From Bacillota bacterium (GTDB lineage Bacteria; Bacillota; Clostridia; Oscillospirales; Acutalibacteraceae), in contig JAEWRF010000228.1 in NCBI GenBank assembly GCA_023460155.1, forward strand, positions 1-59,941: a DNA stretch of 59,941 nt, given 5' to 3'. The position numbers and the translations under genes are program-made. The notes beneath the pieces were generated by a model that had not been told where the DNA came from, did no database searches, and saw nothing but the letters and a program-made list of their open reading frames with translations. Numbering within the stretch: position 1 is the stretch's first letter; every line of letters starts with the position of its first letter. Shown here one piece after another: positions 10,059-31,981 of the stretch.

Positions 10059-10159
10059 ACTCTCCCGCCGGACAAAGCCCAACATTTTCACCGTGCTGAC
10101 TGGCGGGGCCATGACAGCGGCGTCGCGCCGCCGGGGATTTGCGTGCAGGCTCAGCCTGC
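10059..10159 (+). repeat. Dispersed structured repeat copy plus extra terminal hairpin
   Basis: CCCGCC(10064)-32nt-GGCGGG-9nt-GCGGCG.TCG.CGCCGC, then GCAGGC.TCA.GCCTGC (10145-10159) at the grpE stop. Confidence 0.75.
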
Positions 10160-10743
10160 TAATTTGCAACTTGGACCATCGCGTGGCGGACAACCTTACC
10201 GCCGATCGTATATCCCTTCTGGAAGACCTTTGCAATGGTATTTTCGCCTGCGTTTTCGTCTTCCACATGGGCAACCGCGTTGTGCAGGGCCGGGTCGAAG
10301 GGTTCTCCTTCTTTTCCCATTTCTTCCACGCCGAGCTTTTCCAGTGCGGCGGTAAGCTGCTTCTGCACCATTTCGACGCCCTTGCGGAGATTCTCCGCGG
10401 AGCATTCCTGCTGCTCCAGCGCCCGGCCGAGGTTGTCAGCCACCGGCAGGAACTCCAGCACGGCCGCCGCCGTGGCGTCGGCGTAAATGGAGCTTTTCTC
10501 CTTTGCGGTGCGTTTGCGGAAGTTATCGTATTCCGCCGCCGTGCGAAGAAGAAGATCCTTTTGCTTGTTCAGTTCCTCCTGCGTTTCGGCGAGCTGTTTG
10601 CGGGCTTCCTCCAGTTCTTTTCCCGAATCTTTCGGCGCCTCCTGCGGCTGCTCCGCTTTTTCCGGTTCCGCCGGGGTCCCTGCCTGCGTTTCCGCGCGTG
10701 CCGCGGATTCTTCGGGCTTCTTCCCCTTGTCTTTTTTCTCCAA
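10159..10743 (-). CDS. grpE: Nucleotide exchange factor GrpE
   Basis: 'AEYDNFRKR', 'FDPALHNAV', 'QKGY...VRHAMV'. Confidence 0.97.
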   Translation of the reverse strand: MEKKDKGKKPEESAARAETQAGTPAEPEKAEQPQEAPKDSGKELEEARKQLAETQEELNKQKDLLLRTAAEYDNFRKRTAKEKSSIYADATAAAVLEFLPVADNLGRALEQQECSAENLRKGVEMVQKQLTAALEKLGVEEMGKEGEPFDPALHNAVAHVEDENAGENTIAKVFQKGYTIGGKVVRHAMVQVAN

Positions 10744-10760
10744 AACTGGTGCCCCTTTCT

Positions 10761-11792
10761 TTAGTCCATATCCAGCAGTTCCGTAAGCATTCTTCCCACG
10801 GAGCCGGAAAGGTATTCGATATTGGAAATGACACGGCTGTAGTTCATTCGCATCGGGCCGATGATCGCAATGGCACCGGCATCATGCCCGCCCACGGCGT
10901 ATTTCGAAACCACGACGCTGGAATCGCTCAGCTCGGGACGCTTGCTTTCCTGCCCGATCAGCACCCGGGTGTTCCCTTCCTGCTGTGAAAGGAGCCTCGA
11001 AAGCTCCATCGGCCGGGAAAGAAAATCCAGAATTCGCTTTACGCCCGTCTGCCCGATCTCCGGGTAAAACAGCAGGTTCACCTGCCCGTCGAGGCAGATG
11101 TCCGAATGCATGGAATCCTGCGCAACGTCGGCGACCGCCATCAGCGCGGAACTCATCATCATGGCCATATCCCCGAGCGAAGCCGCCAGCGACTGAATGT
11201 AGCCCGGCGTAACCGACGCAACCGGAAGACCGACCAGCTTTTCGTTCAGCATGCGGAAAAAAATGCGCAGAATTTCGGGCGACAGATCAAAATCGCAGTG
11301 AAAAACACGGCTTTTCATCGTGCCTGCCGAAGTCATCAGAATGACCATCGCCGTGCGGCGGCTGGTCTGCACCAGCTGCACCGCCCGAATATCCGCCGAT
11401 TCGCTGCTCGGAGTGGTGGAAACCGCCGCAAACTTCGTCATGGAGGCCAACACCTTCGCGACCCCGTCCAGCAGTTTCTCCGGATCGTAGGCGCTCGGCA
11501 GAATCATGCTGTCAAGCACACGCTTTTCTTCCCCGGAAATCGGCTGCCTGCGCATGAGCGTGTCGATGTACAGGCGATACCCCCGCTGCGTCGGCACCCG
11601 CCCCGCCGAGGTATGCGGCTGCTCCAGCAGCCCCAGCTCGCTCAGCTCGCTCAGCTCGTTGCGCACGGTGGCGGAGGAAACGTTGAAATCGAGCGCGTCA
11701 CAGACGGATTTCGACCCGACCGGCTCGCCCGCGGCAATATAGATTTCCACCACCGCAGCAAGGATCTTCTGCTTTCTCAGGCTCAGTTCCAT
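10761..11792 (-). CDS. hrcA: Heat-inducible repressor HrcA
   Basis: 'PVGSK', 'SSATVRNE', 'QPHTSAGRVP', 'GPMRMNY'; CIRCE upstream. Confidence 0.97.
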   Translation of the reverse strand: MELSLRKQKILAAVVEIYIAAGEPVGSKSVCDALDFNVSSATVRNELSELSELGLLEQPHTSAGRVPTQRGYRLYIDTLMRRQPISGEEKRVLDSMILPSAYDPEKLLDGVAKVLASMTKFAAVSTTPSSESADIRAVQLVQTSRRTAMVILMTSAGTMKSRVFHCDFDLSPEILRIFFRMLNEKLVGLPVASVTPGYIQSLAASLGDMAMMMSSALMAVADVAQDSMHSDICLDGQVNLLFYPEIGQTGVKRILDFLSRPMELSRLLSQQEGNTRVLIGQESKRPELSDSSVVVSKYAVGGHDAGAIAIIGPMRMNYSRVISNIEYLSGSVGRMLTELLDMD

Positions 11793-11820
11793 CGTTTCCC
11801 CTCCTTTCGTTTTCGGGTTG

Positions 11821-11847
11821 TTAGCACTCTGTTTGTTAGAGTGCTAA
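11821..11847. promoter_or_regulatory. CIRCE element
   Basis: Perfect TTAGCACTC-N9-GAGTGCTAA. Confidence 0.98.
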
Positions 11848-11858
11848 CTCTATGTATT

Positions 11859-11887
11859 AGACTACCATTAGTTTGCCCGAATGTCAA
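11859..11887 (-). promoter_or_regulatory. Sigma-A promoter of hrcA operon
   Basis: TTGACA-17-TAGTCT with TG extension. Confidence 0.7.
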
Positions 11888-11917
11888 TATGTTAATTGTA
11901 AACTAATTATGAAATCG

Positions 11918-12128
11918 GCAGGCTGAGCCTGCTTTCAAAAGCCCGCCGTTTCGCAATTTTTGAAAGCGCAGCCTTTCTCCGGCGGGACAGTATTTACAAA
12001 TACCTATCTATATTTTTCAATGCGAAGCCCGTATCAACAATCGGCATTTCTTAAAACTGTCCCGGCAAACCAAACTCAAAACATTCTCCGTGCTGAATGC
12101 CGGGCCCTTGCATGCAGGCTCAGCCTGC
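11918..12128. repeat. Inverted doublet of the dispersed repeat (MITE/REPIN-like)
   Basis: Arms 11918-12004 and 12043-12128 are imperfect reverse complements; both outer ends are GCAGGCTGAGCCTGC. Confidence 0.8.
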
Positions 12129-13292
12129 AAATAAGATTTCCGCTGTCAGCGCGTCGGAAACAAGAAATCCTTTGGGGGTAAAATGAAACCCCTCGGGCGT
12201 GCAGACCGTCAGTCCCGCGGATTCATATTTCCGCGCGGCGCGCATAATCCGTTCCGGAACGGGCTGCCCGAACCGCGCAAGGCATACCTCGTCCGTCAGC
12301 CCTTCGGTCAGGCGCATTTTCAGCATGGCAAATTCCTCAAAGGAACCGCCTTCACCGTCCTGCTCCGGCCCCTCGCCGCGCAGGAACGCGCCGATGCTAC
12401 GGCCGTAGTGGAACCGCTTTCCATTCATAAAGGAATGCGCGGCGGGGCCAAGGCCCCAGTATTCCTCACAGCGCCAGTATTTCAGGTTATGCCGGCTTTC
12501 AAAGCCCGGCTCCGCGAAATTGGAGATTTCATACTGTTTCAGGCCGTGCCGCCCCAGCTCTTCGCACGCGAGCAGATACAGATTCGCCGCCGCGTCCTCG
12601 TCCGGAAGCGCGAGCTCCGCCCGGTTTTTATAGTAGGCCGTCCCCGGCTCGAGCTTTAACAGATAGGCCGAAACGTGGCGTACGCCCAGACCGGCGCAGA
12701 ACTCCACGGACCGGCGCAGGCTCTGCTCCGTCTGGCCCTCGATGGCCAGCATCAGGTCCAGCGTAATATTTTGGAATCCCGCCTTCTGCGCGCTTTCGAC
12801 GGCTTTCGCCGCCTGCGACGCGGAGTGCTTCCGCCCCAGTTCCTTCAGCTCTCCATCGTTCGCCGACTGAAGCCCGAATGAAAGCCGGTTGATTCCTGCC
12901 GCGCGGATTCCATGGAAAAAGTCATCATCGACCCCCTCCGGGTTCGCCTCCGCGGTGATCTCGGCGTTTTCCAGCCCGTATTTTCTTCTCGCCGCCTCCG
13001 TGATGCGGCAAAGGCGCTCCGCACCGAGCAGGCTCGGCGTTCCGCCGCCGAAGTACAGCGTATCGGCGGCTGTGATCTGCTCCGGATTGGAATTCAACAA
13101 TTCTATAATACTTTTTGTATATTCGTCCATCCGTTCTTCCGAAGCACGGACGGAATAAAAGTCGCAGTAAGGGCATTTGCCGTCGCAAAAAGGAATATGG
13201 ATATATAAGCCCCGTCGTTCGGTATGACAGAAAGCAGAGGCGTTGTTTGACGGGAGAGTTTTGGAATCCTGCGGACTTAACAAATCGCTCAT
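12120..13292 (-). CDS. hemW: Radical SAM heme chaperone HemW (HemN-like)
   Basis: 'LYIHIPFCDGKCPYCDF', 'YFGGGTPS', 'YEISNF', 'HNLKYW'; between lepA and hrcA. Confidence 0.92.
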   Translation of the reverse strand: MSDLLSPQDSKTLPSNNASAFCHTERRGLYIHIPFCDGKCPYCDFYSVRASEERMDEYTKSIIELLNSNPEQITAADTLYFGGGTPSLLGAERLCRITEAARRKYGLENAEITAEANPEGVDDDFFHGIRAAGINRLSFGLQSANDGELKELGRKHSASQAAKAVESAQKAGFQNITLDLMLAIEGQTEQSLRRSVEFCAGLGVRHVSAYLLKLEPGTAYYKNRAELALPDEDAAANLYLLACEELGRHGLKQYEISNFAEPGFESRHNLKYWRCEEYWGLGPAAHSFMNGKRFHYGRSIGAFLRGEGPEQDGEGGSFEEFAMLKMRLTEGLTDEVCLARFGQPVPERIMRAARKYESAGLTVCTPEGFHFTPKGFLVSDALTAEILFAG

Positions 13293-13408
13293 TCCATCTC
13301 TCCTATTCTCCGGGCAGTCTTGATTTTCTATTTTACATAAGCCCAAGGGCCCAGTGAGTTTAAGTCATATTTTCTTCTTGTTTTCAGTTTGTCCTCATGC
13401 CGGACGGG

Positions 13409-13429
13409 GCAGGCTGAGCCTGCATGCAA
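13409..13429 (-). repeat. Terminal hairpin of dispersed repeat
   Basis: 21/21 reverse complement of 12108-12128. Confidence 0.75.
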
Positions 13430-13745
13430 TTTTTATTTAAACTGGCTTAGTGGATTCCGAAGGTGAATGCATGACTTCTTCTTACGGCTGTCCGCAGTCA
13501 TGGTCTGCCGTAGGCGAGTTAGACGCTTTGCGTCCGACCCACCGACGGGAGGGTTATCTAAGCGCGCCCCCCTTGTATTCCCCCGGCACTCCCCATCTGC
13601 CAAGGCAATGTTCTAAAGCGCAGAGGTTTTCATTGACGTTTCCGGTCTGTTTCCTTCGCGCCATTCATGTGGCATTTCTAAAAACCATCCCGGGCAAAGC
13701 GTTAACCTGCAAATATCAGCAGCTCGTCAGATCGGTAGGTTTTTC

Positions 13746-13818
13746 CAACACTCCGGCCTAACCACACCCACAATTTTCGCCGTGGAAAACGGCCGGGCTT
13801 GGCAACGGCGACACGCCG

Positions 13819-13819
<1 letters not shown>
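13746..13819 (+). repeat. Dispersed structured repeat copy
   Basis: CCGGCC(13753)-32nt-GGCCGG-8nt-ACGGCG.ACA.CGCCGT touching lepA stop; loop resembles that of the 26.7 kb copy. Confidence 0.65.
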
Positions 13820-15627
<1,808 letters not shown>

Positions 15628-15732
15628 AAAAATCCACCTTTCTTTCAAAAAGGAGGCGGCCCGAAAGTGCGGAGCCGTTCGGCGGAAAACCCGCCTGCGG
15701 CCCGCGTTCCGGGACAGCCTCCGATGTTACTC

Positions 15733-16335
15733 TCAGTAGCGGTTGATATTCCGGTAATACCGGTCGTTGAGGAGGTGCTTGCCGCTTGACCGTTTCGATC
15801 TGCGGTAGCGTTTGCGGCCCATGCCCCGCGGCGGACGCCGGTTCGTGAGCACCACGACGAGAACCACCAGCACGCCGAGCGCGATGCAGGTCCAGGAAAT
15901 GATGCCGATCCACTTGTTGTTCTGGGCGGAGTCGGGGTTGGAAGCGGCGGAGCTGAGCGGATCCACCTCCGAAACGCTGCCGACGCTCGGCAGGGAAATC
16001 GAGCTGGAGGAGGATTCTTCACTGGAAAGGCCCCCTGCAGCGTCGCTGGAAGCCTCACTGGAAACCTCCGAAGAGGACTGCGCTTTTACCTGCTTGCTGG
16101 AAGCCGCCGAAGATGACGGCTTGGACGACGGCACCGAGGCCGCGGAGGAAGAGGGCTTTGCGCTTGAGGACGGGGGCACGCCCGGAATTGCGGACGTGTC
16201 AGGCTCGCTCGTCTGCGGGGATGAACTCCCTGCCGGAGAGGTCGCCGCTCCGAGAACAAATACACTCAGGGAACTGGTAAAAATCAAAATAACCAATATC
16301 ATAAAAATGGACAGCACTTTTCTGAGTCTGCTCAT
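15733..16335 (-). CDS. Hypothetical Ser-rich surface protein
   Basis: Signal peptide, Ser/Pro/Ala low complexity, C-terminal TM and basic tail; GGAGG RBS. Confidence 0.75.
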   Translation of the reverse strand: MSRLRKVLSIFMILVILIFTSSLSVFVLGAATSPAGSSSPQTSEPDTSAIPGVPPSSSAKPSSSAASVPSSKPSSSAASSKQVKAQSSSEVSSEASSDAAGGLSSEESSSSSISLPSVGSVSEVDPLSSAASNPDSAQNNKWIGIISWTCIALGVLVVLVVVLTNRRPPRGMGRKRYRRSKRSSGKHLLNDRYYRNINRY

Positions 16336-16598
16336 TTACAATCCTCCATCGGGCCCGCGGATGCGTGCATTTTCACACTGTTTTCCAAGAATATAAAGTT
16401 ATTATAGCATATTTCCGTGTCAATGCAAGACAAGTTCAAATTTTTGCCCGTGATCTCGTAAATCAGGGTCTTTCCGTCGCCGAAGCCGACCCGGCGGCTC
16501 TCGGAATCGACCGCAAGCAGCCCGAAGACCAGGCCGAGCACGCACAGCGTGCCGAAAAAGGCACCCAGGAAGATCCTCAGGTCGCGGTTGTGTCCCAT
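16332..16598 (-). CDS. Small hypothetical membrane protein
   Basis: One N-terminal TM helix; follows spoIIP, overlaps next gene. Confidence 0.6.
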   Translation of the reverse strand: MGHNRDLRIFLGAFFGTLCVLGLVFGLLAVDSESRRVGFGDGKTLIYEITGKNLNLSCIDTEICYNNFIFLENSVKMHASAGPMEDCK

Positions 16599-16645
16599 TC
16601 CTTCTTTTCACATCCCCCTCCGGTCTCCCTCCTTGGGAGCCGGAT

Positions 16646-17743
16646 TTATGTAAGCCCGTTCAGCACGGCGGCCAGCGCTTTCCCGAACAGTTCGCCGGAG
16701 TACTTTGCCTCGTCGAGCGTGTTGGCGTCCGTGCCGAATTCCACCAGCAGGGAGCCCCGCGTCAGATTCTCGTTGTAGCGGTCCGGGCAGAAGTCGATCG
16801 GGCGGGCCAGATCGGCGTAAAGGTCGCAGAGCGATTTCTGGGCGCGCACGGCCAGCCGAAAATTGTATTCCCAGTCCGGGTAGCCGAGGTCACCCGTGTC
16901 GTCGCAGCCGGCGACGATCATGATCTGCGCGGCCTTTTGCCCGTTGACCACGGCGGTCGGCTTCAGGCGGGTTCCGTCGTCGCGGCTCATGGCGTCGCGG
17001 TGGATGTCCAGCGTCACCTGAATGGACGGATATTTTTTGAGGTCGTTCGTCACCGTCGTGCAGGAGCGGTCGTAGGAGCCGTTGTAGGCCGGGTAATCGT
17101 GGTAGGTGGTGTCGTGCACCACGCCGATGCCAGCGTTCGAAAGCTGCTTCGCGATTTCGTCCCCCACCGCGCAGACGCTCAAGGATTTGTCGGTCGAGCG
17201 CGTCACGCCCTGAAATGCCTCCGTTGTGTGCGTATGATAGATCAACACCTGCGGCCCGGCGTTCTTTTTGATTTTTACGGCGGGCTGCTTCTGGAGTTCC
17301 TGCCCGATATCCACGGCGTGGTGCTTGTTCGAATTCTTCACCCAGAGGTTTTCATACTGCGAACCGCCGGAGTTGATGCACATCTCCAGAATTTTGCCCG
17401 GCAGCATGGAGGAACCTGGCTCGGATACCGCCGCGGAGGAGGAGCTTTCCGATACCGCCGAAGAAGAGCCCGGGTTCCCCGGGTAAACGGTAACGGTTCC
17501 CGAGGAGACCGGAGAGGAGGAAGCCCCGGAGGAAACGGGTGGCCGCTCCGTCTGGGGGGAGGAATCCGGCGCTTCTTCGCTGAAAAAGCCGTCCGCCGCT
17601 CCGGCCGGCAGAATAAAGCCCGCCGCGGTGACGGCCGCGAGCTGCCCCGCCTGCTCCGGCAGGCGCATACCGACGCATGTTACCGCAACTGCAGCGAGAA
17701 TTCCGGACAGGACCCCGGCCGCTCTTTCCTTTGCCTTTTTCAT
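16646..17743 (-). CDS. spoIIP: Stage II sporulation protein P
   Basis: 'IYHTHTTE', 'DIHRD', 'RYNE', 'LVEFG' amidase motifs; downstream of gpr. Confidence 0.93.
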   Translation of the reverse strand: MKKAKERAAGVLSGILAAVAVTCVGMRLPEQAGQLAAVTAAGFILPAGAADGFFSEEAPDSSPQTERPPVSSGASSSPVSSGTVTVYPGNPGSSSAVSESSSSAAVSEPGSSMLPGKILEMCINSGGSQYENLWVKNSNKHHAVDIGQELQKQPAVKIKKNAGPQVLIYHTHTTEAFQGVTRSTDKSLSVCAVGDEIAKQLSNAGIGVVHDTTYHDYPAYNGSYDRSCTTVTNDLKKYPSIQVTLDIHRDAMSRDDGTRLKPTAVVNGQKAAQIMIVAGCDDTGDLGYPDWEYNFRLAVRAQKSLCDLYADLARPIDFCPDRYNENLTRGSLLVEFGTDANTLDEAKYSGELFGKALAAVLNGLT

Positions 17744-17801
17744 ACGTTTCCCCCGACGGCGAACTTTATTCCGGATTTTTCCGGACCGGCCTATCGCTCA
17801 T

Positions 17802-17830
17802 ACTTATGCCGCAGGGAAAATTTTTATTCA
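17802..17830 (-). promoter_or_regulatory. Sigma-E-like promoter of spoIIP
   Basis: GAATA/ATA-16-CATAAGT. Confidence 0.6.
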
Positions 17831-17831
17831 A

Positions 17832-17917
17832 CCAGCGTGACGCTGGACCCAGAGGCCCGCCGTTTCGTCATGAGTAGGAATGCGCCCTCATCCGGCGGGA
17901 CAGTAAAAACAAATACC
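17832..17917 (-). repeat. Dispersed structured repeat copy
   Basis: CCAGCG.TGA.CGCTGG-9nt-CCCGCC-32nt-GGCGGGACAGTA...ACAAATACCT; aligns with 11918-12005. Confidence 0.8.
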
Positions 17918-18065
17918 TGCCGGATACTTAGGCTCGCCGTGTTGCACGCGACGAAACACACCTGTTTTGAGAGAACAGTCTAAAAATGCCGGCGGATTTT
18001 GCCAAACCCGGCCCGCGTTTTTCCCTGTCTGTTCGGCGGGCCACTACCCGAGGAGGCACGTCTCC

Positions 18066-18878
18066 TCAAGTCAGCTCTTCGAACTCCCCGATGCTCAGGC
18101 TCGGGTTCAAAGCACGGTTGATGCCCATGCTGAGCAGATGCGCGCCGCGCTGGATGATGAGGTCAATTTCGCGCGGCGTGACCATCATGGAAGCTCCGCG
18201 CGGGGAAACGGCATCGGCGGGGGCATCCTCCCCCAGCAGGTCGGCGGCAAGGGTCGAGGCGTCAACGACGGTGGGGATTCCCATGCCGATGACGGGCACG
18301 CCGAGCGTGGCCGAGTCGATGCGCGGCCGCGCGTTGCCTACGCCCGCGCCGGGCGAGATGCCGCCTGAGCAGAGCTGCACCGTGCAGCCGAGACGCGAGG
18401 GACTGCGGGCCGCGAGCGCGTCCACGGCGATGACCGCGGCGGGCTTCACCTCGCTGACCACGCCCTTTAAAACCTCGAACGCCTCGATTCCCGTGCAGCC
18501 AAGCACGCCAGGGCTGACCACCGCGACCGGACGCAGCCCCTCCAGCCCGGTCACGCGGGCGATTTCCCCCTGAATGTGGCGCGTGGCGAGAATCTTCTCC
18601 GCGCAGAGCGGCCCGAGCGCGTCCGGGGTGACGGCCCGGTTGCCGAGACCGGCCGCGAGCACCTGCCCCTCCTCCGGGAGCAGGTCGGCGAGCTGTTCGG
18701 CAACAAGGCGCAGCAGCGTGTTGTTTTCGTCGATATGGTCGGATATTGCCGGCACCTCCAGGGTAATATAGACGTTGCCGCCGTCTTCGATGCGCGTGAC
18801 GACGCAGCCGTCCTCCTCGCGCCTCTGCTGTTTTGCGGGCTCTGTGTTTTCGAGCGCCAGATCTGTGCGGAAATTCAA
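18066..18878 (-). CDS. gpr: Germination protease GPR
   Basis: 'RTDLALE', 'GLGNRAVTPDALGP', 'AVDALAA', 'VTPREID'; TTG start with GAGGAG RBS. Confidence 0.95.
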   Translation of the reverse strand: MNFRTDLALENTEPAKQQRREEDGCVVTRIEDGGNVYITLEVPAISDHIDENNTLLRLVAEQLADLLPEEGQVLAAGLGNRAVTPDALGPLCAEKILATRHIQGEIARVTGLEGLRPVAVVSPGVLGCTGIEAFEVLKGVVSEVKPAAVIAVDALAARSPSRLGCTVQLCSGGISPGAGVGNARPRIDSATLGVPVIGMGIPTVVDASTLAADLLGEDAPADAVSPRGASMMVTPREIDLIIQRGAHLLSMGINRALNPSLSIGEFEELT

Positions 18879-19023
18879 TGGAATCGGCTCCTCTCTTTTT
18901 ATGGCGATTGTGGGATTCGGCCGCGGTCCGTTCTGGCCGCGGGGCCTTCCAGAAAAATTAGCTTGCTTTTTTTCGCAGGGAATGATATGATAAATCGTAA
19001 AGCTCTCTAAAGGAGGTGGAAAG

Positions 19024-19290
19024 ATGCCCAACATTAAATCGGCTAAAAAACGCGTCAAGGTGATCGCCGTAAAGACCCTGATCAACAAATCCGCTTCCGC
19101 GGAGCTGAAAACGGAAATCAAGAAGGCGGGCAGCGCTCTTGAAACTGCCGGTGCCGACAACGCCGAGATTCTGAAAGCGGCGGTAAAGAAGATCGATCAG
19201 GCCGCGGCAAAGGGAATTCTGCACAAGAATACCGCAGCCCGGAAAAAGTCCGCTCTCGCGCACAAGTTCAACGCAGCGGCAAAAGCCTGA
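19024..19290 (+). CDS. rpsT: 30S ribosomal protein S20
   Basis: 'MPNIKSAKKR', 'HKNTAARKKS'. Confidence 0.99.
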   Translation: MPNIKSAKKRVKVIAVKTLINKSASAELKTEIKKAGSALETAGADNAEILKAAVKKIDQAAAKGILHKNTAARKKSALAHKFNAAAKA

Positions 19291-19368
19291 AAAAAGCCGG
19301 GAAAGCAGAGCTGACGCCCTGCTTTTTTTCTACCCATGCACCGGCGCCCCGGAAATTCCCGGCAGACG

Positions 19369-19397
19369 TTGACATTTGGGCGGCTTTTGATTATTAT
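19369..19397 (+). promoter_or_regulatory. Sigma-A promoter of small ORF
   Basis: TTGACA-17-TATTAT. Confidence 0.7.
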
Positions 19398-19452
19398 AGA
19401 ATTGAAAAGCGAGAAACACACCGATACAACATGGAAAACGGAGGTGCTCAAT

Positions 19453-19605
19453 TTGAAGAAATCCGGAAGTCTGAACCTGTTGTTTACGATATTGTCCGCA
19501 TTGGCCGCGATGGCTGCTGTGGCGGTTGCCGTTGCCCTTTTCTTTGAACGGAAGAAAAAGGACGACGAGGAACTTGAGCATTATCTCGATTGTTCCATTC
19601 AGTAA
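19453..19605 (+). CDS. Small single-TM hypothetical protein (50 aa)
   Basis: GGAGGTG RBS, TTG start, own promoter and terminator (~19640-19677). Confidence 0.7.
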   Translation: MKKSGSLNLLFTILSALAAMAAVAVAVALFFERKKKDDEELEHYLDCSIQ

Positions 19606-19830
19606 TCCCTTCGCAGAAACAACCGGAAAACCGGAATCGACGCGGACAGGTGTTTTTACGCCTGCCCGCGTTTCTTTCGCCGCCGGGCCACCCGGTCCCG
19701 CAGGCTGCGGTAAAGCAGTCTTGCCACCTGCCACAGAAGGCTGATCAGCCAGTTTCCGCTGATAATGCGGAAAGCCATCCACGCGAGGCCCGCGTAACGG
19801 GACCCCGTGCGGGCGTAGCGGTAGATCGGG

Positions 19831-20190
19831 CTACGTCTTATCGCCTGATTTTGAAAACAAAGCGGCCAGATAGCCGAAGAACACCGCCGCCGCGATTCCG
19901 GCAGCCCCCGCCGCAACGCCGCCGGAGAAGACCCCGATGATCCCCTTCTCCCGCACCGCCTCCAGCGTGCCTTTCGCCATAAGATAGCCGAACCCCGTCA
20001 GCGGAACCGTCGCCCCGCACCCCGCAAAGTCGACCAGCGGGCCGTAGATTCCCACCGCGCCGAGCACAACCCCGGCCGTCACGAACGACACGAGAATCCG
20101 GGCCGGCGTAAGCTTCGTGAAATCAATGAGCAGCTGGCCCACGGCGCAGAGCGCCCCGCCGACCAGAAACGACCATACATACTGCAACAT
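19831..20190 (-). CDS. spoVAE: Stage V sporulation protein AE (SpoVAC/AEb family)
   Basis: 'FLVGGALCAVGQLLID', 'GATVPLTGFG'. Confidence 0.9.
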   Translation of the reverse strand: MLQYVWSFLVGGALCAVGQLLIDFTKLTPARILVSFVTAGVVLGAVGIYGPLVDFAGCGATVPLTGFGYLMAKGTLEAVREKGIIGVFSGGVAAGAAGIAAAVFFGYLAALFSKSGDKT

Positions 20191-20206
20191 TCGTCACCTC
20201 GGCTTT

Positions 20207-20236
20207 TAGTTTCGCCCGGCGCCGTTTTCTCTATAC
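20207..20236 (-). promoter_or_regulatory. Forespore sigma-F/G-like promoter of spoVAE
   Basis: GTATA-15-GGCGAAACTA. Confidence 0.65.
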
Positions 20237-20316
20237 ATTCGAATTTTCCAGAACAAACACAATTTTGGAATCGGGCTCGGCCCGCCCGGTGTTTTTTTAA
20301 AAGGATCGTGATCGCA

Positions 20317-21108: not shown

Positions 21109-21174
21109 ATGGCAGGTAAATTATGTCAAGAAAAAAACCATTGTGAAGTGTAAATAAACGCAGTATAATGAATT

Positions 21175-21387: not shown

Positions 21388-21555
21388 GTCGCCTTGCGGA
21401 GGATGCCGCGGGGCCGCCCGTAAGGGCGGGGCCCTGCGCGCCGAATCCGACAGGCTGCGGGCCCGGCGCCGGTTTTTTCGTTTTGGAAGGCAATGACGTT
21501 TTGTGAAAAGAAGTGTCGTTTTTTAAAGATCACCGGTCGCTTACGGCAACGCGCA

Positions 21556-21602
21556 AGAAAAGGGACAGGAAGGGAGAACCCTTCCTGTCCCTTTTCTGTT
21601 TT
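21556..21602 (+). terminator. Strong intrinsic terminator
   Basis: AGAAAAGGGACAGGAAGGG-AGAA-CCCTTCCTGTCCCTTTTCT perfect stem. Confidence 0.8.
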
Positions 21603-21702
21603 CCGGCGCGGGGGAAACCGTATTATTGCAATTGGGAATCATCGTGCTATAATAAAAATCAGACCATCGGGAAAACTCCGGGTCGATAAGGAGAATATAA
21701 AA

Positions 21703-22152
21703 ATGAAAAAATGCCTCATCATTTATTATTCCTACCATCACGGCAACACGAAAAAGGTGGCCGAGGCCATGGCAGAGGCCTGCGGGGCGGAGCTCTGCCC
21801 GATGGAAGAAGCCGGCGGAAAAAATCTGGACGGCTATGAAATCATCGGGCTCGGCGCGGGAATTGACCGCGGCAGGCACTACGCTCCGCTGTTTGACGCT
21901 GCCGAAAAGCTGAATTTCAAGGGCAGGAGCGTGTTCGTCTTTTCCACCAGCGGGACGGGGAATAAAAGCTACAACGACGCCCTGATTCAAAAGCTGAAGG
22001 AAGCGGGCGCGGCCGTCGCGGGAAACTTTACGTGCCGCGGATACGACACCCAGGTTCTCAGGCTGATCGGCGGAATCGCGAAGGGCCATCCGGACGCCCG
22101 GGAACTCGAAGCCGCGAAAGCGTTTGCCAAAAGCATGGTGAAAGACAGCTGA
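21703..22152 (+). CDS. Flavodoxin family protein
   Basis: 'YYSYHHGNTKKVA' FMN loop, 'KGHPD'; AAGGAG RBS. Confidence 0.88.
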   Translation: MKKCLIIYYSYHHGNTKKVAEAMAEACGAELCPMEEAGGKNLDGYEIIGLGAGIDRGRHYAPLFDAAEKLNFKGRSVFVFSTSGTGNKSYNDALIQKLKEAGAAVAGNFTCRGYDTQVLRLIGGIAKGHPDARELEAAKAFAKSMVKDS

Positions 22153-22209
22153 ACAAAAAGAGGAGCAGACAGCGTGTCTGCTCCTTGTTTTATTGCTTTG
22201 CTCTCAGGC

Positions 22210-24078
22210 TCAGTCTGCCACAATGGGCATATCGCCGGGCTCGTGGGAAGCGCCCTTGAAATAGATATCGTACCATACAAGAAAGATGAAGGCCGTCCAG
22301 ATCTGGCGGCTGTAATCGCATTTTCCGGCAAAATGCGTGTTCAGGTACCGGAGCAGCTCGTCCGTGTTGAAAAATTCCTCCGCTGTTTTGGAGGTAAAGG
22401 CCTGCTTTACAATATTATAGTATTTTTCCTCGCGCAGCCATACGCGGATCGGCACCGGGAAACCGAGCTTTTTCTTCTGGGCGGTTGCCTCCGGCAGATG
22501 CCGGGCCGCAGCCTTGCGCATGGTATATTTGGTGTTCTGTTTGTTGACTTTCAGGTTTTTCGGGATGCGGGAGGCAACCTCAAACACTTTTTTGTCGAGG
22601 AACGGCACGCGGAGCTCCAGCGAATTCGCCATGCTCATGCGGTCGGCCTTTAGCAGGATATCGCCCACCATCCAGACGTTGATGTCAAGGTACTGCATCT
22701 TGGTAACATCGTCCTGATCCTGCACGCGGTCGAAATAGGGCTTGGTGATCTCCTGCGGCATGCTCACGGGGATGTCGCTTTTGAGCAGACGGCGTTTTTC
22801 CTCCAGCGTAAACATGCTGCAGTTGCCGATGAAATGCCCCTCGATGGGCAGAGCGGCGCGGATGAGGAAGTTCTTGCCCTTAAACGAGAACGGAATCTTT
22901 TTCGCCACTGCCGCAAAGAAGCGGCGGAGCCAGAGCGGAAGCTTCTGGTACCCGGCGAGATCGTCCGGTTCGTGGTAAATATTGTAGCCGCCGAACAGCT
23001 CGTCGCTGCCCTCGCCGGAGAGCACAACTTTCACATAGTCGCGCGCGATTTTGGAAACGAAATAGAGTGCGATGCAGGAGGCGTCCGCCAGAGGCTGATC
23101 CATGTGGTACATCACCTTGCGGATGTTTCCCCAGTATTCGTCGGGCGAAATGGTTTTGTAATGGTGCTCGAGGCCGATCTTTTCCGAAAGTTCCTTCGCG
23201 TAGCCGATCTCGTTGTAGTGCTCGTCCTCGCCGAAGCCGACGGTGAAGGTTTTCTGCCCCTCGAAGAAGGTGGAAACATAGCTCGAATCCACGCCGCTCG
23301 ACAGGAAGCACCCGACCTCGACGTCGCTGATCTTGTGCGCCTCCACGGAATCCGCGAAGACCTTCTCGATCTGGGAGACCGCCTCGTCCTCCGTCATGTT
23401 CTCGTCCGGGTCGAATTTCGGTTCCCAGTAGCGGTGCGTCTCCACCTGGCCGTCGCGGTACCAGAGGTAATGCGCGGGCATCAGGCAGAAGACGTTCTCA
23501 AAAAACGTCTCGGGCGGCACCATATATTCAAAGGAAATGTAGTTGCTTAGCGCATTCCGGTTCAGTTTCTTTTCAAAACCGGGGAATTCGAGGATGCTCT
23601 TGATTTCGCTGGCATAGACGAAGTTATCGCCCACCTGCGTGTAGTGCATCGGCTTGATTCCGAAGAAATCGCGGGCGATGAACAGGCTTTTGTCGTTTTT
23701 ATTCCAGATGGCGAACGCGAACATGCCGCGCAGCTTGTTGAGCAGCTCTTCATGCCACTCCTCAAAGCCGTGAACCAGCACCTCGCTGTCGGTCTGGGTG
23801 GTAAACGTGTGCCCTTTCGCGATCAGGATCTCGCGGAGCTGCTGGTAATTGTAGATTTCGCCGTTGAACATCAGCACCAGAGAACGGTCTTCGTTATAGA
23901 TCGGCTGGTCGCCTGCGTTCAGGTCGATGATGCTCAGGCGCCGGAAGCCCATTGAGATGTTCCCATCCGAAAAAACGCCGTTGGAATCCGGCCCCCGGTG
24001 GGTGATCACATCCGTCATGTTTTTGATGACCGCGTCGCGGTCAATCACTTCCCCCGTAAAGCCACACAATCCGCACAT
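22210..24078 (-). CDS. asnB: Asparagine synthase (glutamine-hydrolysing)
   Basis: N-terminal MCG, 'HRGPD', 'NGEIYN', 'LSSGVDSS', 'SGEGSDELFGGY'. Confidence 0.95.
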   Translation of the reverse strand: MCGLCGFTGEVIDRDAVIKNMTDVITHRGPDSNGVFSDGNISMGFRRLSIIDLNAGDQPIYNEDRSLVLMFNGEIYNYQQLREILIAKGHTFTTQTDSEVLVHGFEEWHEELLNKLRGMFAFAIWNKNDKSLFIARDFFGIKPMHYTQVGDNFVYASEIKSILEFPGFEKKLNRNALSNYISFEYMVPPETFFENVFCLMPAHYLWYRDGQVETHRYWEPKFDPDENMTEDEAVSQIEKVFADSVEAHKISDVEVGCFLSSGVDSSYVSTFFEGQKTFTVGFGEDEHYNEIGYAKELSEKIGLEHHYKTISPDEYWGNIRKVMYHMDQPLADASCIALYFVSKIARDYVKVVLSGEGSDELFGGYNIYHEPDDLAGYQKLPLWLRRFFAAVAKKIPFSFKGKNFLIRAALPIEGHFIGNCSMFTLEEKRRLLKSDIPVSMPQEITKPYFDRVQDQDDVTKMQYLDINVWMVGDILLKADRMSMANSLELRVPFLDKKVFEVASRIPKNLKVNKQNTKYTMRKAAARHLPEATAQKKKLGFPVPIRVWLREEKYYNIVKQAFTSKTAEEFFNTDELLRYLNTHFAGKCDYSRQIWTAFIFLVWYDIYFKGASHEPGDMPIVAD

Positions 24079-24203
24079 TGCAATACCCTTCCTTACTTTA
24101 ACACAGGCCGCCGATAAATCCGCCGGCAAAACGCCCGGCAGGCCTTCGGCGGCCGCACCTCAATCCAGAACTAAAAATAGTGTGCTCCCCACACCGGGCT
24201 TGT

Positions 24204-24860
24204 TTATTCGGCTTCGCCGCGGTATTCTTCCAGAATTTTCCCCGCCGTTACGGAATCCACCGGCAGGAATCCGCTTCCCGCGGAAATTCCCGCATTTTTT
24301 ACGATCTCAAGGGATTTGCGGTACGCGTCCATCCGCGTGCTTCTGCCGACGGGCTCGTCCGCCCCTTCCGGAAAAAAGGAAAAAGTGATCTTGTTTTCCG
24401 CTTCGTCGCAAAAGCAGAAATAGCCGTTCGACGCCTTTTTGCCGTATTTCTGTTCCAGGACCCCAGAGAGCGCGAGCTTTACCAGCTCCACCGCGGCATC
24501 GTCGAGCCCCGCCTCAAAAATCAGCACTTTTTCCTTCAGGCCCGCCAGCGTGGAAACCATCCGCTTTTTCACCCCGGAAAGCTGAGGAAACTTCTCCTCG
24601 GCGTCCGCCGTTTCTGATTTTCCGCAGCCGTTCGGCTCCACGTAAACCATGAACCGCCGCTCGGGGTCGTGATACAGGCACGGATACATCAGCTGGGCCG
24701 TGTAGCCGCACTGAGGGCACTTCCAGTCGAACAGGGTTTCGTCAAGCACGCGTTCCCGAAGCTCGGGGTTGTCCCGCGCGCTGATTGCCGGCCACATGCC
24801 GGTTTTCACCGCCGCGCCGCAGTGCGGACATCCCACTTCCTTGCTAATTTGCGTCGACAT
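24204..24860 (-). CDS. CpXC domain protein
   Basis: CPHC and CPQC motifs, 'LYHDP'. Confidence 0.8.
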   Translation of the reverse strand: MSTQISKEVGCPHCGAAVKTGMWPAISARDNPELRERVLDETLFDWKCPQCGYTAQLMYPCLYHDPERRFMVYVEPNGCGKSETADAEEKFPQLSGVKKRMVSTLAGLKEKVLIFEAGLDDAAVELVKLALSGVLEQKYGKKASNGYFCFCDEAENKITFSFFPEGADEPVGRSTRMDAYRKSLEIVKNAGISAGSGFLPVDSVTAGKILEEYRGEAE

Positions 24861-25009
24861 TCGCTCTTCTCCTTATTCTCTGCGTGTTCGTTCATTATAT
24901 CACAAGAACATAAAAAAAGGAATAGATGAAATACTACTGTTATGAAACGCGGATTTGCGGTATAATATTGGAAAAGCAAGGCCGCAGTGAGCGGCAGGGA
25001 GGCAGCATT

Positions 25010-26645: not shown

Positions 26646-26783
26646 TTGGCGGGACAGTTTTTCAACTGTTCCCGCCGTTTTTATACCCTTTATACTGGCG
26701 CAGCTTGAAACCGTCCCGCCAAAACGAACTACAATTTTTCCGCCGCACTGAACGGCGGGCCCTTGAAAACGGGCTCGGACCGC
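26646..26783. repeat. Dispersed repeat: partial inverted core plus full copy
   Basis: TTGGCGGGACAGTTTTT at 26646; CCCGCC(26715)-33nt-GGCGGG-9nt-degenerate hairpin 26769-26783 adjacent to a stop codon. Confidence 0.75.
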
Positions 26784-27383
26784 TCAGCGTGCCGGCTGTG
26801 AAGAATCGGTTGTAAAAAACAGATCAATCCCTTCGGTCGAGCCGTCGGGTTTTTCCCCATTAAAGCTCGAAAACGGTGCAGGCTGAATTGTTTTGCCGGT
26901 TTTGTCCACCGCAGGCATCACATTTTTCGGTACCCGGTCCCCCGTAATGGTGTCCATCGTTTTGCCCTCGTGCCTGCAGACAAGCGTAACGCTGTCGATT
27001 CCGGCGGAAAAAGGGCCGGCAGTCAGTTCTTCACGCACCGCCTCCAACACGAACAAGTAGCTGGTCATCATCAAATCACGCTGCGGCGAGTACTGACCGT
27101 TTTTTATCTCATTTTGGGTTGGCTTCGTTTCTTTTTCCGGGGAAGCGTTCGGGAACTCCAGTGTCACGGTCAGCGCAGACCCCGACTTCGCACACGAAAC
27201 CACCTGCGCATTTACCGTTCCGATGCGCCTCGCCAGCCGGTCGGAAAGCGAAATTCCGACGTTCCGTTCCAGAACGACTCCGAGCACAGTGCCGCCCAGC
27301 AGCGCAATTGCCGTCAGGGCTATCGTGCAAAAACGACGGTGCTTTTTTACGGTATCTCCCACAAACGAAAGCGAAATTTTCAT
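26784..27383 (-). CDS. Hypothetical membrane-anchored protein
   Basis: One N-terminal TM; GAGGTG RBS before ATG 27383. Confidence 0.65.
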   Translation of the reverse strand: MKISLSFVGDTVKKHRRFCTIALTAIALLGGTVLGVVLERNVGISLSDRLARRIGTVNAQVVSCAKSGSALTVTLEFPNASPEKETKPTQNEIKNGQYSPQRDLMMTSYLFVLEAVREELTAGPFSAGIDSVTLVCRHEGKTMDTITGDRVPKNVMPAVDKTGKTIQPAPFSSFNGEKPDGSTEGIDLFFTTDSSQPAR

Positions 27384-27538
27384 GGAAAGCACCTCTTTCC
27401 CCTCCATTTTAATCCCGTTTGTGAAAAAAGCAAGCGTTATATTCTACTTTGGGGCAATTTCAGCGTCCGCCGGAATTTCTTGACATTTTGCCGAATTGAA
27501 AATACAATAAAGAAAAAAGTGGAAAAGAGGCACACATC

Positions 27539-29374: not shown

Positions 29375-29393
29375 TTCGATTCTCCCATCAATC

Positions 29394-29645: not shown

Positions 29646-29681
29646 AGCTCCATCATATCGACGGCGCGCCGTTTTGTCAAG

Positions 29682-29733: not shown

Positions 29734-29758
29734 GAATCAAACGAAAAGAGGGAACGGC

Positions 29759-31057
29759 ATGGACGTGTTCGACAAGCTGAAAATTCTGACCGACGCGGCG
29801 AAATACGACGTTGCCTGCACCTCCAGCGGGGTGGATAAAAAAGCCGCGCCGGGCGGCATCGGGAGCGCTTCGGCCTGCGGAATCTGTCACAGCTTTGCGG
29901 GGGACGGGCGGTGCATCTCGCTTTTAAAGGTGCTGTATTCCAACGCCTGCGTATACGACTGCGAGTACTGCGTGAACCGCCGGTCGAACGATTCGCCACG
30001 GGCGACGTTCGAGCCGCGCGAGCTGGCGGAGCTGACCATCCAGTTTTACCGCCGCAACTACATCGAGGGGCTTTTCCTCAGTTCCGGCGTCGTGAAAAAT
30101 CCCGACTACACCTGCGAGCGGATGATCGAGGTGCTGCGCATTCTGCGGGAGGAATACCGCTTTTACGGCTACATCCACGCGAAGGCGATCCCCGGAGCGG
30201 ACAGCGCCCTCCTTTCCCGGCTCGGCACGCTGGCGGACCGCATGAGTGTGAACATCGAGCTGCCCTCGCAGAGCAGCCTTTCGCTGCTCGCTCCGGATAA
30301 GTCGAGGCACTCCATCCTCGCGCCGATGGGTTTCATTCAGAACCGGATTCAGGAAAACTCAACGGAGCTGGTGCGCTACCATCACGCGCCGAAGTTCGCG
30401 CCCGCCGGGCAGAGCACGCAGATGATCGTCGGCGCGACGCCGGAGACGGATTTACAGATTCTGAATCTGACGGAGGGCCTTTATAAAAAGTACAGCCTGA
30501 AGCGCGTATTTTTCTCCGCCTATATGCCGGTGACGGAAAGCGCCCTTCTGCCCTCCCTCGGCACGAAGCCGCCGCTGCTTCGGGAGCACCGGCTTTATCA
30601 GGCGGACTGGCTCTTACGCTTTTACGGGTTTCAGGCGAACGAGCTGCTGGACAAGGACCACCCGAGCTTTCACCCGCTGCTGGATCCGAAATGCAGCTGG
30701 GCGTTAAACCACCTGGAATTTTTCCCGGTTGAGGTGAAAACCGCGCCGTACCGCGATCTTCTGCGGGTGCCGGGCATCGGCGTAACCGGCGCGAAGCGCA
30801 TCGTCACGGCGCGCCGGGCCGGATCGATCGACTTTGCGGGGCTGAAAAAGCTTGGGGTCGTGCTCAAGCGGGCGCAGTATTTCATCACCTGCGGCGGCAG
30901 GCTGGCGGACGGGCTGAAGGTGACGCAGGACGCCGCCCTTCGTGCGCTTCTTCCCGAAAGCGGCCTACCGGAGGCCCCGCCGGAGCAGCTTTCGCTTTTC
31001 GCGCCGCAGAACCCGACGAGGGAGGATGTTCGGAAATGCCTGACCGGCCAAATCTGA
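29759..31057 (+). CDS. Putative DNA modification/repair radical SAM protein (TIGR03916-like)
   Basis: 'AAKYDVACTSSG', CVYDCEYC, 'EHRLYQADWL', HhH 'LRVPGIG'. Confidence 0.92.
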   Translation: MDVFDKLKILTDAAKYDVACTSSGVDKKAAPGGIGSASACGICHSFAGDGRCISLLKVLYSNACVYDCEYCVNRRSNDSPRATFEPRELAELTIQFYRRNYIEGLFLSSGVVKNPDYTCERMIEVLRILREEYRFYGYIHAKAIPGADSALLSRLGTLADRMSVNIELPSQSSLSLLAPDKSRHSILAPMGFIQNRIQENSTELVRYHHAPKFAPAGQSTQMIVGATPETDLQILNLTEGLYKKYSLKRVFFSAYMPVTESALLPSLGTKPPLLREHRLYQADWLLRFYGFQANELLDKDHPSFHPLLDPKCSWALNHLEFFPVEVKTAPYRDLLRVPGIGVTGAKRIVTARRAGSIDFAGLKKLGVVLKRAQYFITCGGRLADGLKVTQDAALRALLPESGLPEAPPEQLSLFAPQNPTREDVRKCLTGQI

Positions 31058-31848
31058 CCTACCGCTACGACGGCACCTTCGAGGGTCTGCTTTGCTGTGT
31101 GTTTGAAAGCTATGACAAAAAACAGCTTCCGCTCGACATTCTCGCCCCGGACGCGCCCCCGACGCTTTTTCCCGAGTGGGAAATTGAAACGGACGCGGAA
31201 AAGGCGCGGCGGGTGCTGGTTTCCATCCCCCGGAAGATGGGTTCGGAGGCGCCGGGCTTTCTCCGGCGCGCGTTTCTGACCTGCCTCCCGCACAAGGAGC
31301 TGCGCACGCTGGAATTCCTGCGGCTCGGATACCGCGTTGGCCCGAACGTCATGAACCTGCTGACCGACGACACCGTACACGAGCTGACAACGGCGGTGCG
31401 CTTTCTGGAGCGGGAAGCTCACCTTTTTAAGGAATTCATCCGATTTTCCGATTTCAGCGGCGCGCTGGTTGCGGAAATCAAGCCGAAAAACCTTGTTCTC
31501 CCGCTCCTCCTCACGCATTTCTGCGAGCGCTTCCCGGAGGAGCAGTTCCTCATTTACGACCGGGTGCACGGCATGGCGCTGATTTACCACCCCCACCACG
31601 CGGAAATCGTACCGATTGAAAGTCTCGACCTGCCTGCGCCGGACGAAACGGAACGGAAGTACCGAGAGCTGTGGCGGATGTTTTATAAGACCATCGAAAT
31701 CGAGGGGCGGCACAATCCCCGCTGCCGCATGGGACACATGCCCAGGCGCTACTGGGACTGCATGACCGAGTTCCAGCAGCGCGACGCTGCACCCAAGGAC
31801 CCGGCCTCCGACACGGAGAAAAAATCAGGGCTGAGTTTGCCGGGATAG
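31036..31848 (+). CDS. DUF4130 / TIGR03915-like putative DNA metabolism protein
   Basis: 'YDGTFEGLL', 'FIRF', 'HFCERF', 'MPRRYW'; overlaps radical SAM gene. Confidence 0.88.
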   Translation: MPDRPNLTYRYDGTFEGLLCCVFESYDKKQLPLDILAPDAPPTLFPEWEIETDAEKARRVLVSIPRKMGSEAPGFLRRAFLTCLPHKELRTLEFLRLGYRVGPNVMNLLTDDTVHELTTAVRFLEREAHLFKEFIRFSDFSGALVAEIKPKNLVLPLLLTHFCERFPEEQFLIYDRVHGMALIYHPHHAEIVPIESLDLPAPDETERKYRELWRMFYKTIEIEGRHNPRCRMGHMPRRYWDCMTEFQQRDAAPKDPASDTEKKSGLSLPG

Positions 31849-31895
31849 TACTGGGACGCTCCCAGAGGATAAATTTCTTATGACTAATAAAATAT

Positions 31896-31981
31896 GGCAT
31901 TCCCAAAACCGTCCCGCCAAACAAAGACTGAATTTTTACTCCCAGCAAAACGGCGGGCCTTTGGATGCAGCGGCACGCTGC
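31896..31981 (+). repeat. Dispersed structured repeat copy
   Basis: GGCATT..AAAACCGTCCCGCC-33nt-GGCGGG-9nt-GCAGCG.GCA.CGCTGC. Confidence 0.8.

Follow-up and report, generated by a model that had tools for sequence, protein, structure and literature searches.

Overall organization of the locus

The stretch of DNA analysed here, referred to as the window, comprises 59,941 nt of a Bacillota bacterium (assembly GCA_023460155.1, contig JAEWRF010000228.1; Acutalibacteraceae, Oscillospirales, Clostridia) and contains a family of dispersed palindromic repeat units, each about 95 nt long. The units form a genuine family, in which pairing is kept by compensatory changes, the geometry is rigid, the position is adjacent to stop codons, and the orientation follows the upstream gene. 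The window has a G+C content of 58%, and its minus strand carries a gpr-spoIIP-lepA-hemN-hrcA-grpE-dnaK-dnaJ region of the sporulating-Firmicute type, as assigned with Pfam; further Pfam-assigned genes after the dnaJ region include mnmA, a radical-SAM/TIGR03915 pair, and other housekeeping genes. The closest relatives of its HrcA in 185,579 representative genomes, a collection that excludes the genome of the window itself, belong to Caproicibacter and Caproiciproducens (73–80% identity). In a LepA tree, the window is located inside a 14-row clade (support 100/100) together with Caproicibacter fermentans and allied metagenome-assembled genomes. For comparison, 80 loci around hrcA of relatives (named L001 and so on) were used.

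A covariance model, R1, was trained on the seven full copies reported in the first-pass annotation, and the whole window was scanned with the filters off. All seven are present where they had been placed, and their stem variants are as listed there, including the copy at 26.7 kb with an incompletely paired end hairpin. R1 adds one full copy (copy 8) and one partial copy (copy 9), both on the minus strand (Table 1). All nine copies are confined to 22 kb of the 60-kb window, and they are mutually 41–64% identical (mean 54%). The reported fragments are of uneven standing. Those at 10138–10160 and 13409–13429 indeed consist of a linker and an end hairpin, and the one at 17989–18069 is weak, whereas the hairpins at 6672 and 26646 are plain terminator-like structures that share only the common ACTGTCCCGCC motif, and the fragment at 13671 is visible by eye only. 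The ACTGTCCCGCC motif itself has 12 matches in the window at no more than one mismatch, compared with 3.6 expected, and none of 100 shuffles reaches 12.

Table 1. Repeat units, fragments, and motif-bearing hairpins in the window, with the scores of covariance models R1 and R2
Feature	Position	Strand	Support	Setting
Hairpin, two-way, terminator-like	6672..6698		Motif relation only; 3′ arm is the ACTGTCCCGCC motif	After dnaJ
Copy 1, full	10041..10136	+	R1 87.4 bits, R2 84.5 bits	grpE-dnaK spacer, antisense to both genes
Solo linker and end hairpin	10138..10160	+	R1 14.4 bits	3′ piece of another unit
Copy 2	11913..12009	-	R1, R2	Distal half of head-to-head dimer with copy 3
Copy 3	12038..12133	+	R1	Proximal half of dimer with copy 2
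Copy 9, partial	13196..13277	-	R1 33.3 bits, R2 45.3 bits	Long stem present, end hairpin absent
Solo linker and end hairpin	13409..13429	-	R1 15.0 bits	Flank like the second repeat type of L025
Copy 4	13730..13824	+	R1	Directly 3′ of lepA
Copy 5	17827..17922	-	R1, R2	gpr-spoIIP spacer, sense orientation; distal half of decayed dimer
Decayed partner of copy 5, weak	17989..18069	+	R1 8.2 bits, E 1.7	Proximal half
Hairpin, terminator-like	26646..26680		ACTGTCCCGCC motif and its complement, then a T run	Beside copy 6
Copy 6	26692..26788	+	R1; 4/6 end-hairpin pairs form	Between convergent genes
Copy 8, new	31771..31867	-	R1 63.9 bits, E 8.8e-15	Proximal half of dimer with copy 7
Copy 7	31890..31986	+	R1	Distal half of dimer; upstream of a short-chain dehydrogenase gene

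A covarying two-stem fold shared among relatives

Outside the window, R1 yields 27 matches at E ≤ 1e-3 in the 80 related loci; since the model was trained on the window only, these matches show that the family is not a product of chance. A second model, R2, was built from the first matches and, at a cut-off of E ≤ 0.1, gives 49 matches, of which nine lie in the window and the other 40 are spread over 15 of the 80 loci. The positive loci derive mainly from relatives of Caproicibacter and Anaeromassilibacillus, with up to nine copies per 21-kb locus, and no R2 match is found in the five Caproiciproducens loci L004, L017, L019, L021, and L038.

Each unit is composed, in order, of a CGGGAG box, about 10 nt, the 5′ strand of a 7–8 bp stem bearing a bulged T, a loop of 31–33 nt, the 3′ strand of the same stem, a linker of 7–8 nt, and an end hairpin with a 6-bp stem and a 3-nt loop. 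These dimensions are held closely: the long loop lies within 31–33 nt in 46 of 49 copies and the bulged T exists in 47, while among 38 copies the linker has 7–8 nt in 37 and the end loop 3 nt in 37, with 27 of the 38 loops reading GCA, TCA, or ACA. At the front of the unit the first-pass annotation had described an AAAACYGT-like lead-in, which is present in this genome and fails elsewhere, the relatives carrying the CGGGAG box in its place (34/49 copies).

The two helices were recovered among the seven reported copies with MAFFT and RNAalifold as 14 pairs, eight of which show two-sided changes. In the alignment of all 49 rows (A3), 91.9% of the cells are paired, compared with 72.8 ± 1.1% after shuffling (0/500 shuffles reach the observed value) and with 36–59% in slid controls. 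Two-sided changes occur at 11 of the 14 pairs, and both stems covary; the rows are related and the alignment was fitted to the structure of the model, so that these figures favour the structure. Especially the pair flanking the bulged T switches cleanly, being C-G in 27 copies, G-C in 18, and A-U in one. The earlier proposal that pairing and spacing persist while the sequence drifts is thus borne out by the covariation in A3 and by the rigid geometry over 49 copies. G-U pairs are rare, with seven on the strand on which the unit was first described and eight on the other among 581 cells, giving no strand bias; 554 of the 581 cells are Watson–Crick on both strands. Even copies of one genome differ in stem sequence and stay complementary. 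A search for further covarying pairs or pseudoknots in the 32-nt loop returned only the two known helices, and the folding energies of single copies are ordinary (z from -2.0 to +0.5).

Clustering of the copies by identity, intended to tell orthologous from paralogous descent, is informative only for very close species pairs (L001/L002 at 91%, L031/L026 at 76%), the remaining copies clustering at 55–70%. The family has no counterpart in Rfam 15: no hit reaches the gathering score in the window or in a further 99.6 kb from seven related loci, and loose searches at E ≤ 5 and E ≤ 10 return nothing relevant. No match was obtained by blastn for a window dimer against plasmids or for an L001 array against phages, and literature searches found no description of this repeat family.

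The linker-plus-hairpin module also occurs in a second repeat of about 220 nt, where it is joined to other conserved, apparently foldable sequence. This second repeat is located at 7250–7500 and 9470–9720 in L025, upstream of hemN and of hrcA, on the minus strand at 13330–13470 in the window, and in the lepA-hemN spacer of L010.

Anchoring of the end hairpin at stop codons

In most cases the unit runs antisense to its upstream gene; the transcribed strand is hence the reverse complement of the strand first described. Anchoring was evaluated on the 38 of 49 matches with a complete end hairpin, using reading frames of at least 130 codons and expressing each frame end as an offset relative to the start of the hairpin. 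At offset -2, the last base of the stop codon is the first base of the stem; at offset +6, the stop codon forms the hairpin loop. Frame ends are found at -3 (11 copies), -2 (4), +6 (4), -6 (1), and -13 (1), and a further one at -14 was discarded as a spurious frame antisense to hrcA. The end hairpin therefore touches the upstream stop codon, at offset -3 or -2 or with the stop as its loop, in 19 of the 38 copies, and frame ends fall within -6 to +6 of the hairpin start in 20 of 38, compared with one of 38 in a control at the other end of the unit. The contact involves 11 genes, namely lepA, spoIIP, gpr, grpE, hemN, dnaK, and those of a HAD hydrolase, an ABC permease, and an FGGY kinase, together with two unnamed open reading frames (ORFs).

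Within the window, anchoring is seen at grpE, hemN, lepA, and ORF 26784–27407, as well as at gpr with a decayed hairpin. The grpE stop TAG (10159–10161, minus strand) overlaps the edge of the adjacent solo hairpin at offset -2. In copy 3, the end-hairpin loop is the hemN stop TGA (offset +6) and the hairpin arm forms the last two hemN codons, while in copy 4 the first hairpin base is the A of the lepA stop TAA (offset -2). Copy 6 is abutted by the stop TGA of the minus-strand ORF 26784–27407 (offset -3), and the decayed partner of copy 5 has a hairpin, with a loop of 6 nt, that overlaps the stop TGA of gpr. The TIGR03915/DUF4130 gene (31036–31848) instead runs into copy 8 and stops at 31846–31848; at the hairpin edge it has the codon CAG in the place that TAG takes at other sites. 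Copy 9 lies within the 5′ part of a long hemN reading frame, which makes the true hemN start uncertain.

TAG is the stop codon at 11 of the 20 anchored sites (-6 to +6) and in eight of 52 window genes, although sites shared by descent are counted repeatedly in the former figure. In the 12 nt preceding the hairpin of the 38 copies, TAG or TA appears only where it closes an ORF; the other copies mostly have CG, and GTAG occurs once (L008). Furthermore, the hairpin arm encodes the C-terminal residues of Gpr in L025, L026, and L031, as it does for HemN in the window. Plus-strand copies abut minus-strand genes in L023 (1256–1351), L061 (613–708), L031 (3256–3349), and L026 (3700–3794). The orientation of the unit thus flips with the strand of the gene, which argues against an effect of replication direction.

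Two further observations concern stop codons and tails. The protein tail that the TIGR03915/DUF4130 gene derives from copy 8 extends about 24 residues beyond the conserved end, and relatives of 60–93% identity have similar, variable tails. The asnB stop TGA (window 22198–22222) is located within an apparent decayed end hairpin with 4/6 pairs, the rest of the unit being absent there.

Dimers, arrays, and the CGGGAG box

Opposite-strand neighbours are arranged head-to-head in seven of seven cases, with the hairpins pointing outward, and for three of these dimers the predicted lowest-energy fold is a single long hairpin. In the window, most units belong to such dimers or to what is left of them: copies 2/3, copies 8/7, copy 5 with its decayed partner, and copies 9/4, which are 452 nt apart. 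Probably, the family exists naturally as a head-to-head dimer of about 215 bp that has a small hairpin at each outer end; the singletons would be remnants of it, and the head-to-tail arrays would represent local amplifications. The two ACTGTCCCGCC-bearing hairpins (26646–26680 and 6672–6698), which T or A runs follow, may be collapsed centres of such dimers. The 452 nt separating copies 9 and 4 (13278–13729) contain no convincing ORF and have no Rfam match; related sequence is limited to short stretches in or next to the hairpin module (L025, L021, L026, and window 12108–12128) and to one 43-nt match in L023.

On the minus strand of L001 (1297–1826) and L002 (3278–3546 and 7816–8107), units are arrayed head-to-tail and repeat about every 87 nt. 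The array units are 87–98% identical, and the repeat junction lies inside the end hairpin. Between these close species, L001 and L002, the copy number differs, with six vs three units after spoIIP and one vs about three after lepA.

The CGGGAG box exists in one of the nine window copies, copy 1 being the only one with an intact box. The box complements the 5′ strand of the long stem, and since this strand also pairs with the distal strand, the two helices are mutually exclusive. On the strand first described, 13 of 36 copies have either helix in their predicted lowest-energy fold (10 and 12 of 36 on the opposite strand), and the CGGGAG/CTCCCG helix has no covariation in either register.

Gain and loss between relatives

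Units are present or absent between close relatives, and their occupancy is patchy on the species tree; within the 14-row LepA clade, occupancy after lepA is scattered. The comparison of empty and filled orthologous sites that the first-pass annotation had proposed reveals differences at the 3′ end of dnaK (L026/L031) and in the lepA-hemN spacer. At the empty lepA-hemN site, ten loci have 26–35 nt from the lepA stop to the conserved hemN start, and the hemN start overlaps the lepA end by eye in most (L004, L007, L015, L017–L019, L031, L038). At the filled sites, the unit begins at the lepA stop, the genes are 170–630 nt apart, and the hemN N-terminus is different, while all 20 sequences compared keep the same LepA C-terminus. 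In the case of dnaK, the unit of L026 lies within the last codons; its hairpin loop contains the stop, and the terminal residues of DnaK are replaced. The closely related L031 has no unit there, and the flanks of the two are nearly identical. In L022, a unit follows directly after the TA of the lepA stop, inside a 1,259-nt block (7499–8757) that is absent from the sister L016. This block consists of one unit and an Acyl_transf_3 gene, and the window has a 63%-identical acyltransferase gene at 5516–6583.

Other copies persist. In the window, L010, L023, and L047, whose HrcA proteins are 75–80% identical, a unit precedes hrcA by 121–126 nt; the window unit is copy 2, whose hairpin is 126 nt from the hrcA start. 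The stretch between the two also contains, just upstream of hrcA, an inverted repeat (11820–11848) with perfect 12-bp arms and a 5-nt loop, which resembles the CIRCE operator of HrcA. Elsewhere in the window, three tandem paralogous spore-germination permease genes (39425–42889) stand beside gerA- and gerC-type genes, and the largest direct-repeat families of the window come from these paralogues.

Proposed origin of the family and competing explanations

The combined evidence favours, with a probability of roughly 0.55, a lineage-specific, non-autonomous palindromic family similar to repetitive extragenic palindromic (REP) sequences and REPINs, which would belong to the Caproicibacter branch of the Oscillospiraceae/Acutalibacteraceae and have a few copies in Anaeromassilibacillus relatives. 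New copies would arise by transposition of a folded single strand through an enzyme encoded elsewhere, for which a HUH enzyme similar to the REP-associated tyrosine transposases (RAYTs) is the obvious candidate; group 1 RAYTs are reported in Clostridia (PMC5581495). Insertions at an ORF end would survive because the edge or loop of the hairpin supplies, or spares, the stop codon. The element would then be transcribed as the reverse complement of the strand first described and, as RNA of a 3′ untranslated region (UTR) or an intercistronic spacer, may form a barrier to 3′ exonucleases and uncouple neighbouring cistrons. The different stem sequences within one genome fit single-strand pairing better than the recognition of a fixed duplex.

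Several points weigh against such a replicator. No transposase or recombinase domain is found in the 64 ORFs of the window or in the 82 ORFs of the 15 element-bearing loci, and an exact core pattern of four window copies has no match in the 185,579 representative genomes. Recent transposition is not shown here, since no near-identical dispersed pair is seen and the window copies are only 41–64% identical, and all nine of them lie within the same 22 kb. No target-site duplication is apparent by eye at the four dimers with visible flanks, the GTAG or CGTC tag of REPs is not conserved among the 38 copies, and the difference between L022 and L016 includes a whole acyltransferase gene and is thus not a clean element-only event. 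In addition, a rigid geometry despite divergence would suit a selected RNA or a protein-bound fold equally well, and templated repair can keep the complementarity of a quasi-palindrome without selection.

A cis-acting structured RNA at the start of 3′ UTRs and intercistronic spacers, selected for its function and not spread as a replicator, is a possible explanation of clearly lower probability. The terminating ribosome would melt the stop-adjacent hairpin, and CTCCCGCC would pair with either the CGGGAG box or the distal strand, forming a switch that sets the stability or processing of the mRNA 3′ end or the expression of the next cistron. Such an RNA would account for an orientation tied to the upstream gene with the hairpin 0–1 nt from the stop, for a loop, linker, and bulge that stay fixed despite 36–59% sequence difference, for the retention of the same sites across species, such as that upstream of hrcA, and for the complementarity of the box to the 5′ strand of the long stem, with either helix predicted in 13 of 36 copies. 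It agrees poorly with the equal numbers of G-U pairs on the two strands (7 vs 8 of 581 cells), with distal dimer halves that are transcribed in the other sense, and with a box that lacks covariation and is lost in eight of nine window copies; nor does the 32-nt loop hold extra covarying pairs, the folding energies are ordinary, and Rfam offers no match. The head-to-tail arrays and the insertion at the dnaK 3′ end, moreover, look like repeat dynamics. Rather unlikely is a stop-anchored RNA or single-stranded DNA device under selection, in which the terminating ribosome opens the hairpin and CTCCCGCC, over a strictly kept spacer of 31–33 nt, selects either the distal GGCGGGG strand or the CGGGAG box as its partner, setting the fate of the 3′ end or the next cistron, while a dedicated protein, possibly a domesticated HUH enzyme, reads the geometry and copies the element.

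The outward-facing dimers are long imperfect palindromes with identical-type ends, some pairs enclose 113–450 nt of other sequence (L031 3066–3349, L010 210–476, window 13196–13824), and occupancy differs in close relatives, all of which might be expected of a miniature inverted-repeat or palindrome-associated transposable element (MITE/PATE) derived from a conventional insertion sequence (IS), either with a DDE transposase and terminal inverted repeats (TIRs) or with IS200/IS605 ends. The dimer of about 215 bp would then be a deleted transposon and the units of about 95 nt its long TIRs. This origin is improbable: direct target duplication is lacking by eye at four dimers, no transposase ORF exists between or near the pairs among the ORFs screened, blastn finds no plasmid or phage match, and the end hairpins differ from copy to copy through compensatory changes, whereas a transposase as a rule binds ends of constant sequence. 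The hairpin flanks are variable across copies; IS200/IS605-derived PATEs have sub-terminal hairpins at both ends, insert 3′ of a fixed tetra- or pentanucleotide, and go with a matching TnpA. Rigid spacing, Watson–Crick pairing on both strands in 554 of 581 cells, and clustering in 22 kb might also be read as duplex-DNA sites, made of CGGGAG-type half-sites with fixed spacing, for a protein of the nucleoid, of replication, or of segregation, which is very unlikely, as a protein reading sequence would not need complementarity and the stems differ within one genome yet stay complementary, and as orientation follows gene direction and the stop codon. The location of the units 3′ of ORFs, together with the ACTGTCCCGCC motif in two plain terminator-like hairpins, recalls ordinary or U-tract-free intrinsic terminators that are alike by chance. 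We give this reading hardly any credence: of 40 terminator-like sites in 5000–24999, none coincides with the helices of full copies and one overlaps the 17989–18069 fragment, neither helix is followed by a T run, a loop of 32 nt is atypical, and units stand inside operons (grpE-dnaK, lepA-hemN) in a genome that uses canonical terminators elsewhere. By eye, the units were also considered as promoters, integron attC sites, CRISPR arrays, or small-RNA genes; all four readings were dropped, as spacer structure, cassette context, and a terminator tail are absent and the orientation follows the ORF upstream.

If the REP/REPIN-like interpretation is true, long-lived REPIN-type intragenomic replicators extend to Gram-positive anaerobes, namely caproate-producing Clostridia; if the RNA or single-stranded DNA device is true, a REPIN-like partnership of replicator and host with its own architecture exists in such organisms. 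No new principle is implied, as most of the behaviour has precedents in REP biology. Meanwhile, the element matters for annotation: it supplies stop codons, replaces the last residues of DnaK, HemN, and Gpr, adds a tail to the TIGR03915 protein, and breaks the start-stop overlap of lepA and hemN. The rigid geometry and the clean compensatory changes also make it a manageable example for finding out what reads a fold of this type. The stop-codon anchoring, the dimer organization, the arrays, and the CGGGAG box had not been noticed in the earlier reading.

Comparison with known repeat systems

To our knowledge, REP and REPIN systems are almost entirely known from Proteobacteria; a genome with such a system carries tens to hundreds of similar copies and a single-copy RAYT gene flanked by the repeat. 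In the paper of Di Nocera et al. (PMC3733652), REPs are described across eight phyla, and the main text contains neither the word Firmicutes nor any word beginning with Clostrid. The same paper describes REPs with stems of 6–13 bp, loops of 2–3 nt, and subfamilies with complementary stem changes; head-head dimers are preferred and singletons are dimer remnants; REPs lie within 20 bp of upstream ORF ends, where their GTAG termini often supply a TAG stop; and a GTAG (or CGTC) tag stays unpaired at one end and is kept in >90% of the members (PMC3733652). REPINs are described as inverted REP doublets that are moved by RAYTs and vertically inherited for very long (PMC3337134, 10.1101/2021.07.10.451892, 10.1101/2022.05.22.493013). 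The family described here resembles these systems in its short GC-rich hairpin with a 3-nt loop, its complementary stem subfamilies, its dimers folding into one hairpin, its location a few bases from upstream ORF ends with occasional supply of the stop codon, and its long vertical persistence (PMC3733652; see also PMC3337134, PMC3116915, and 10.1101/2021.07.10.451892).

The first-pass suggestion of a REP/REPIN-like element accordingly stands for the outward-hairpin doublets (7/7), the long-hairpin folds, the hairpin edge at ORF stops, the subfamilies with complementary stem variants, and the gain and loss in close relatives, but not for the GTAG/CGTC tag, which is not conserved. There are further differences. 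The hairpin here is one module of a 95-nt unit whose other parts include a second covarying stem, a bulged T, the fixed 31–33 nt loop, and the CGGGAG box; the copies are far more diverged (41–64%); the host is a Firmicute of the Clostridium class; and a RAYT is not seen among the 64 and 82 ORFs screened.

Bacterial interspersed mosaic elements (BIMEs) and composite REP structures join degenerate REP units to unrelated stem-loops. Such composites, like the TIRs of TIRYT genes, are modular mosaics in which a REP-like hairpin is combined with other conserved stem-loops, in dimers or clusters (PMC3733652). The likeness to them lies in the linker-plus-hairpin module, which here also occurs alone and within the second repeat type, whereas the sequences are unrelated, the GGGGWSAS motif of those TIRs is not evident, and no transposase gene is known to be flanked by the repeat. 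The Correia/NEMIS, ERIC, BOX, and RUP elements are transcribed intergenic repeats of 100–200 bp that form long hairpins, lie at gene ends, and can overlap starts or stops; they possess defined terminal inverted repeats, and several have TA target duplications. Compared with such bacterial MITEs, the present family shows no duplication by eye, and the sequence families differ. With intrinsic terminators it shares GC-rich hairpins 3′ of ORFs and differs from them by the missing U tract, the long loop, and the positions inside operons. Taken together, these comparisons suggest that the repeat works like a REP/REPIN and represents a new architecture, which is not to be filed as a member of the tagged REP superfamilies.

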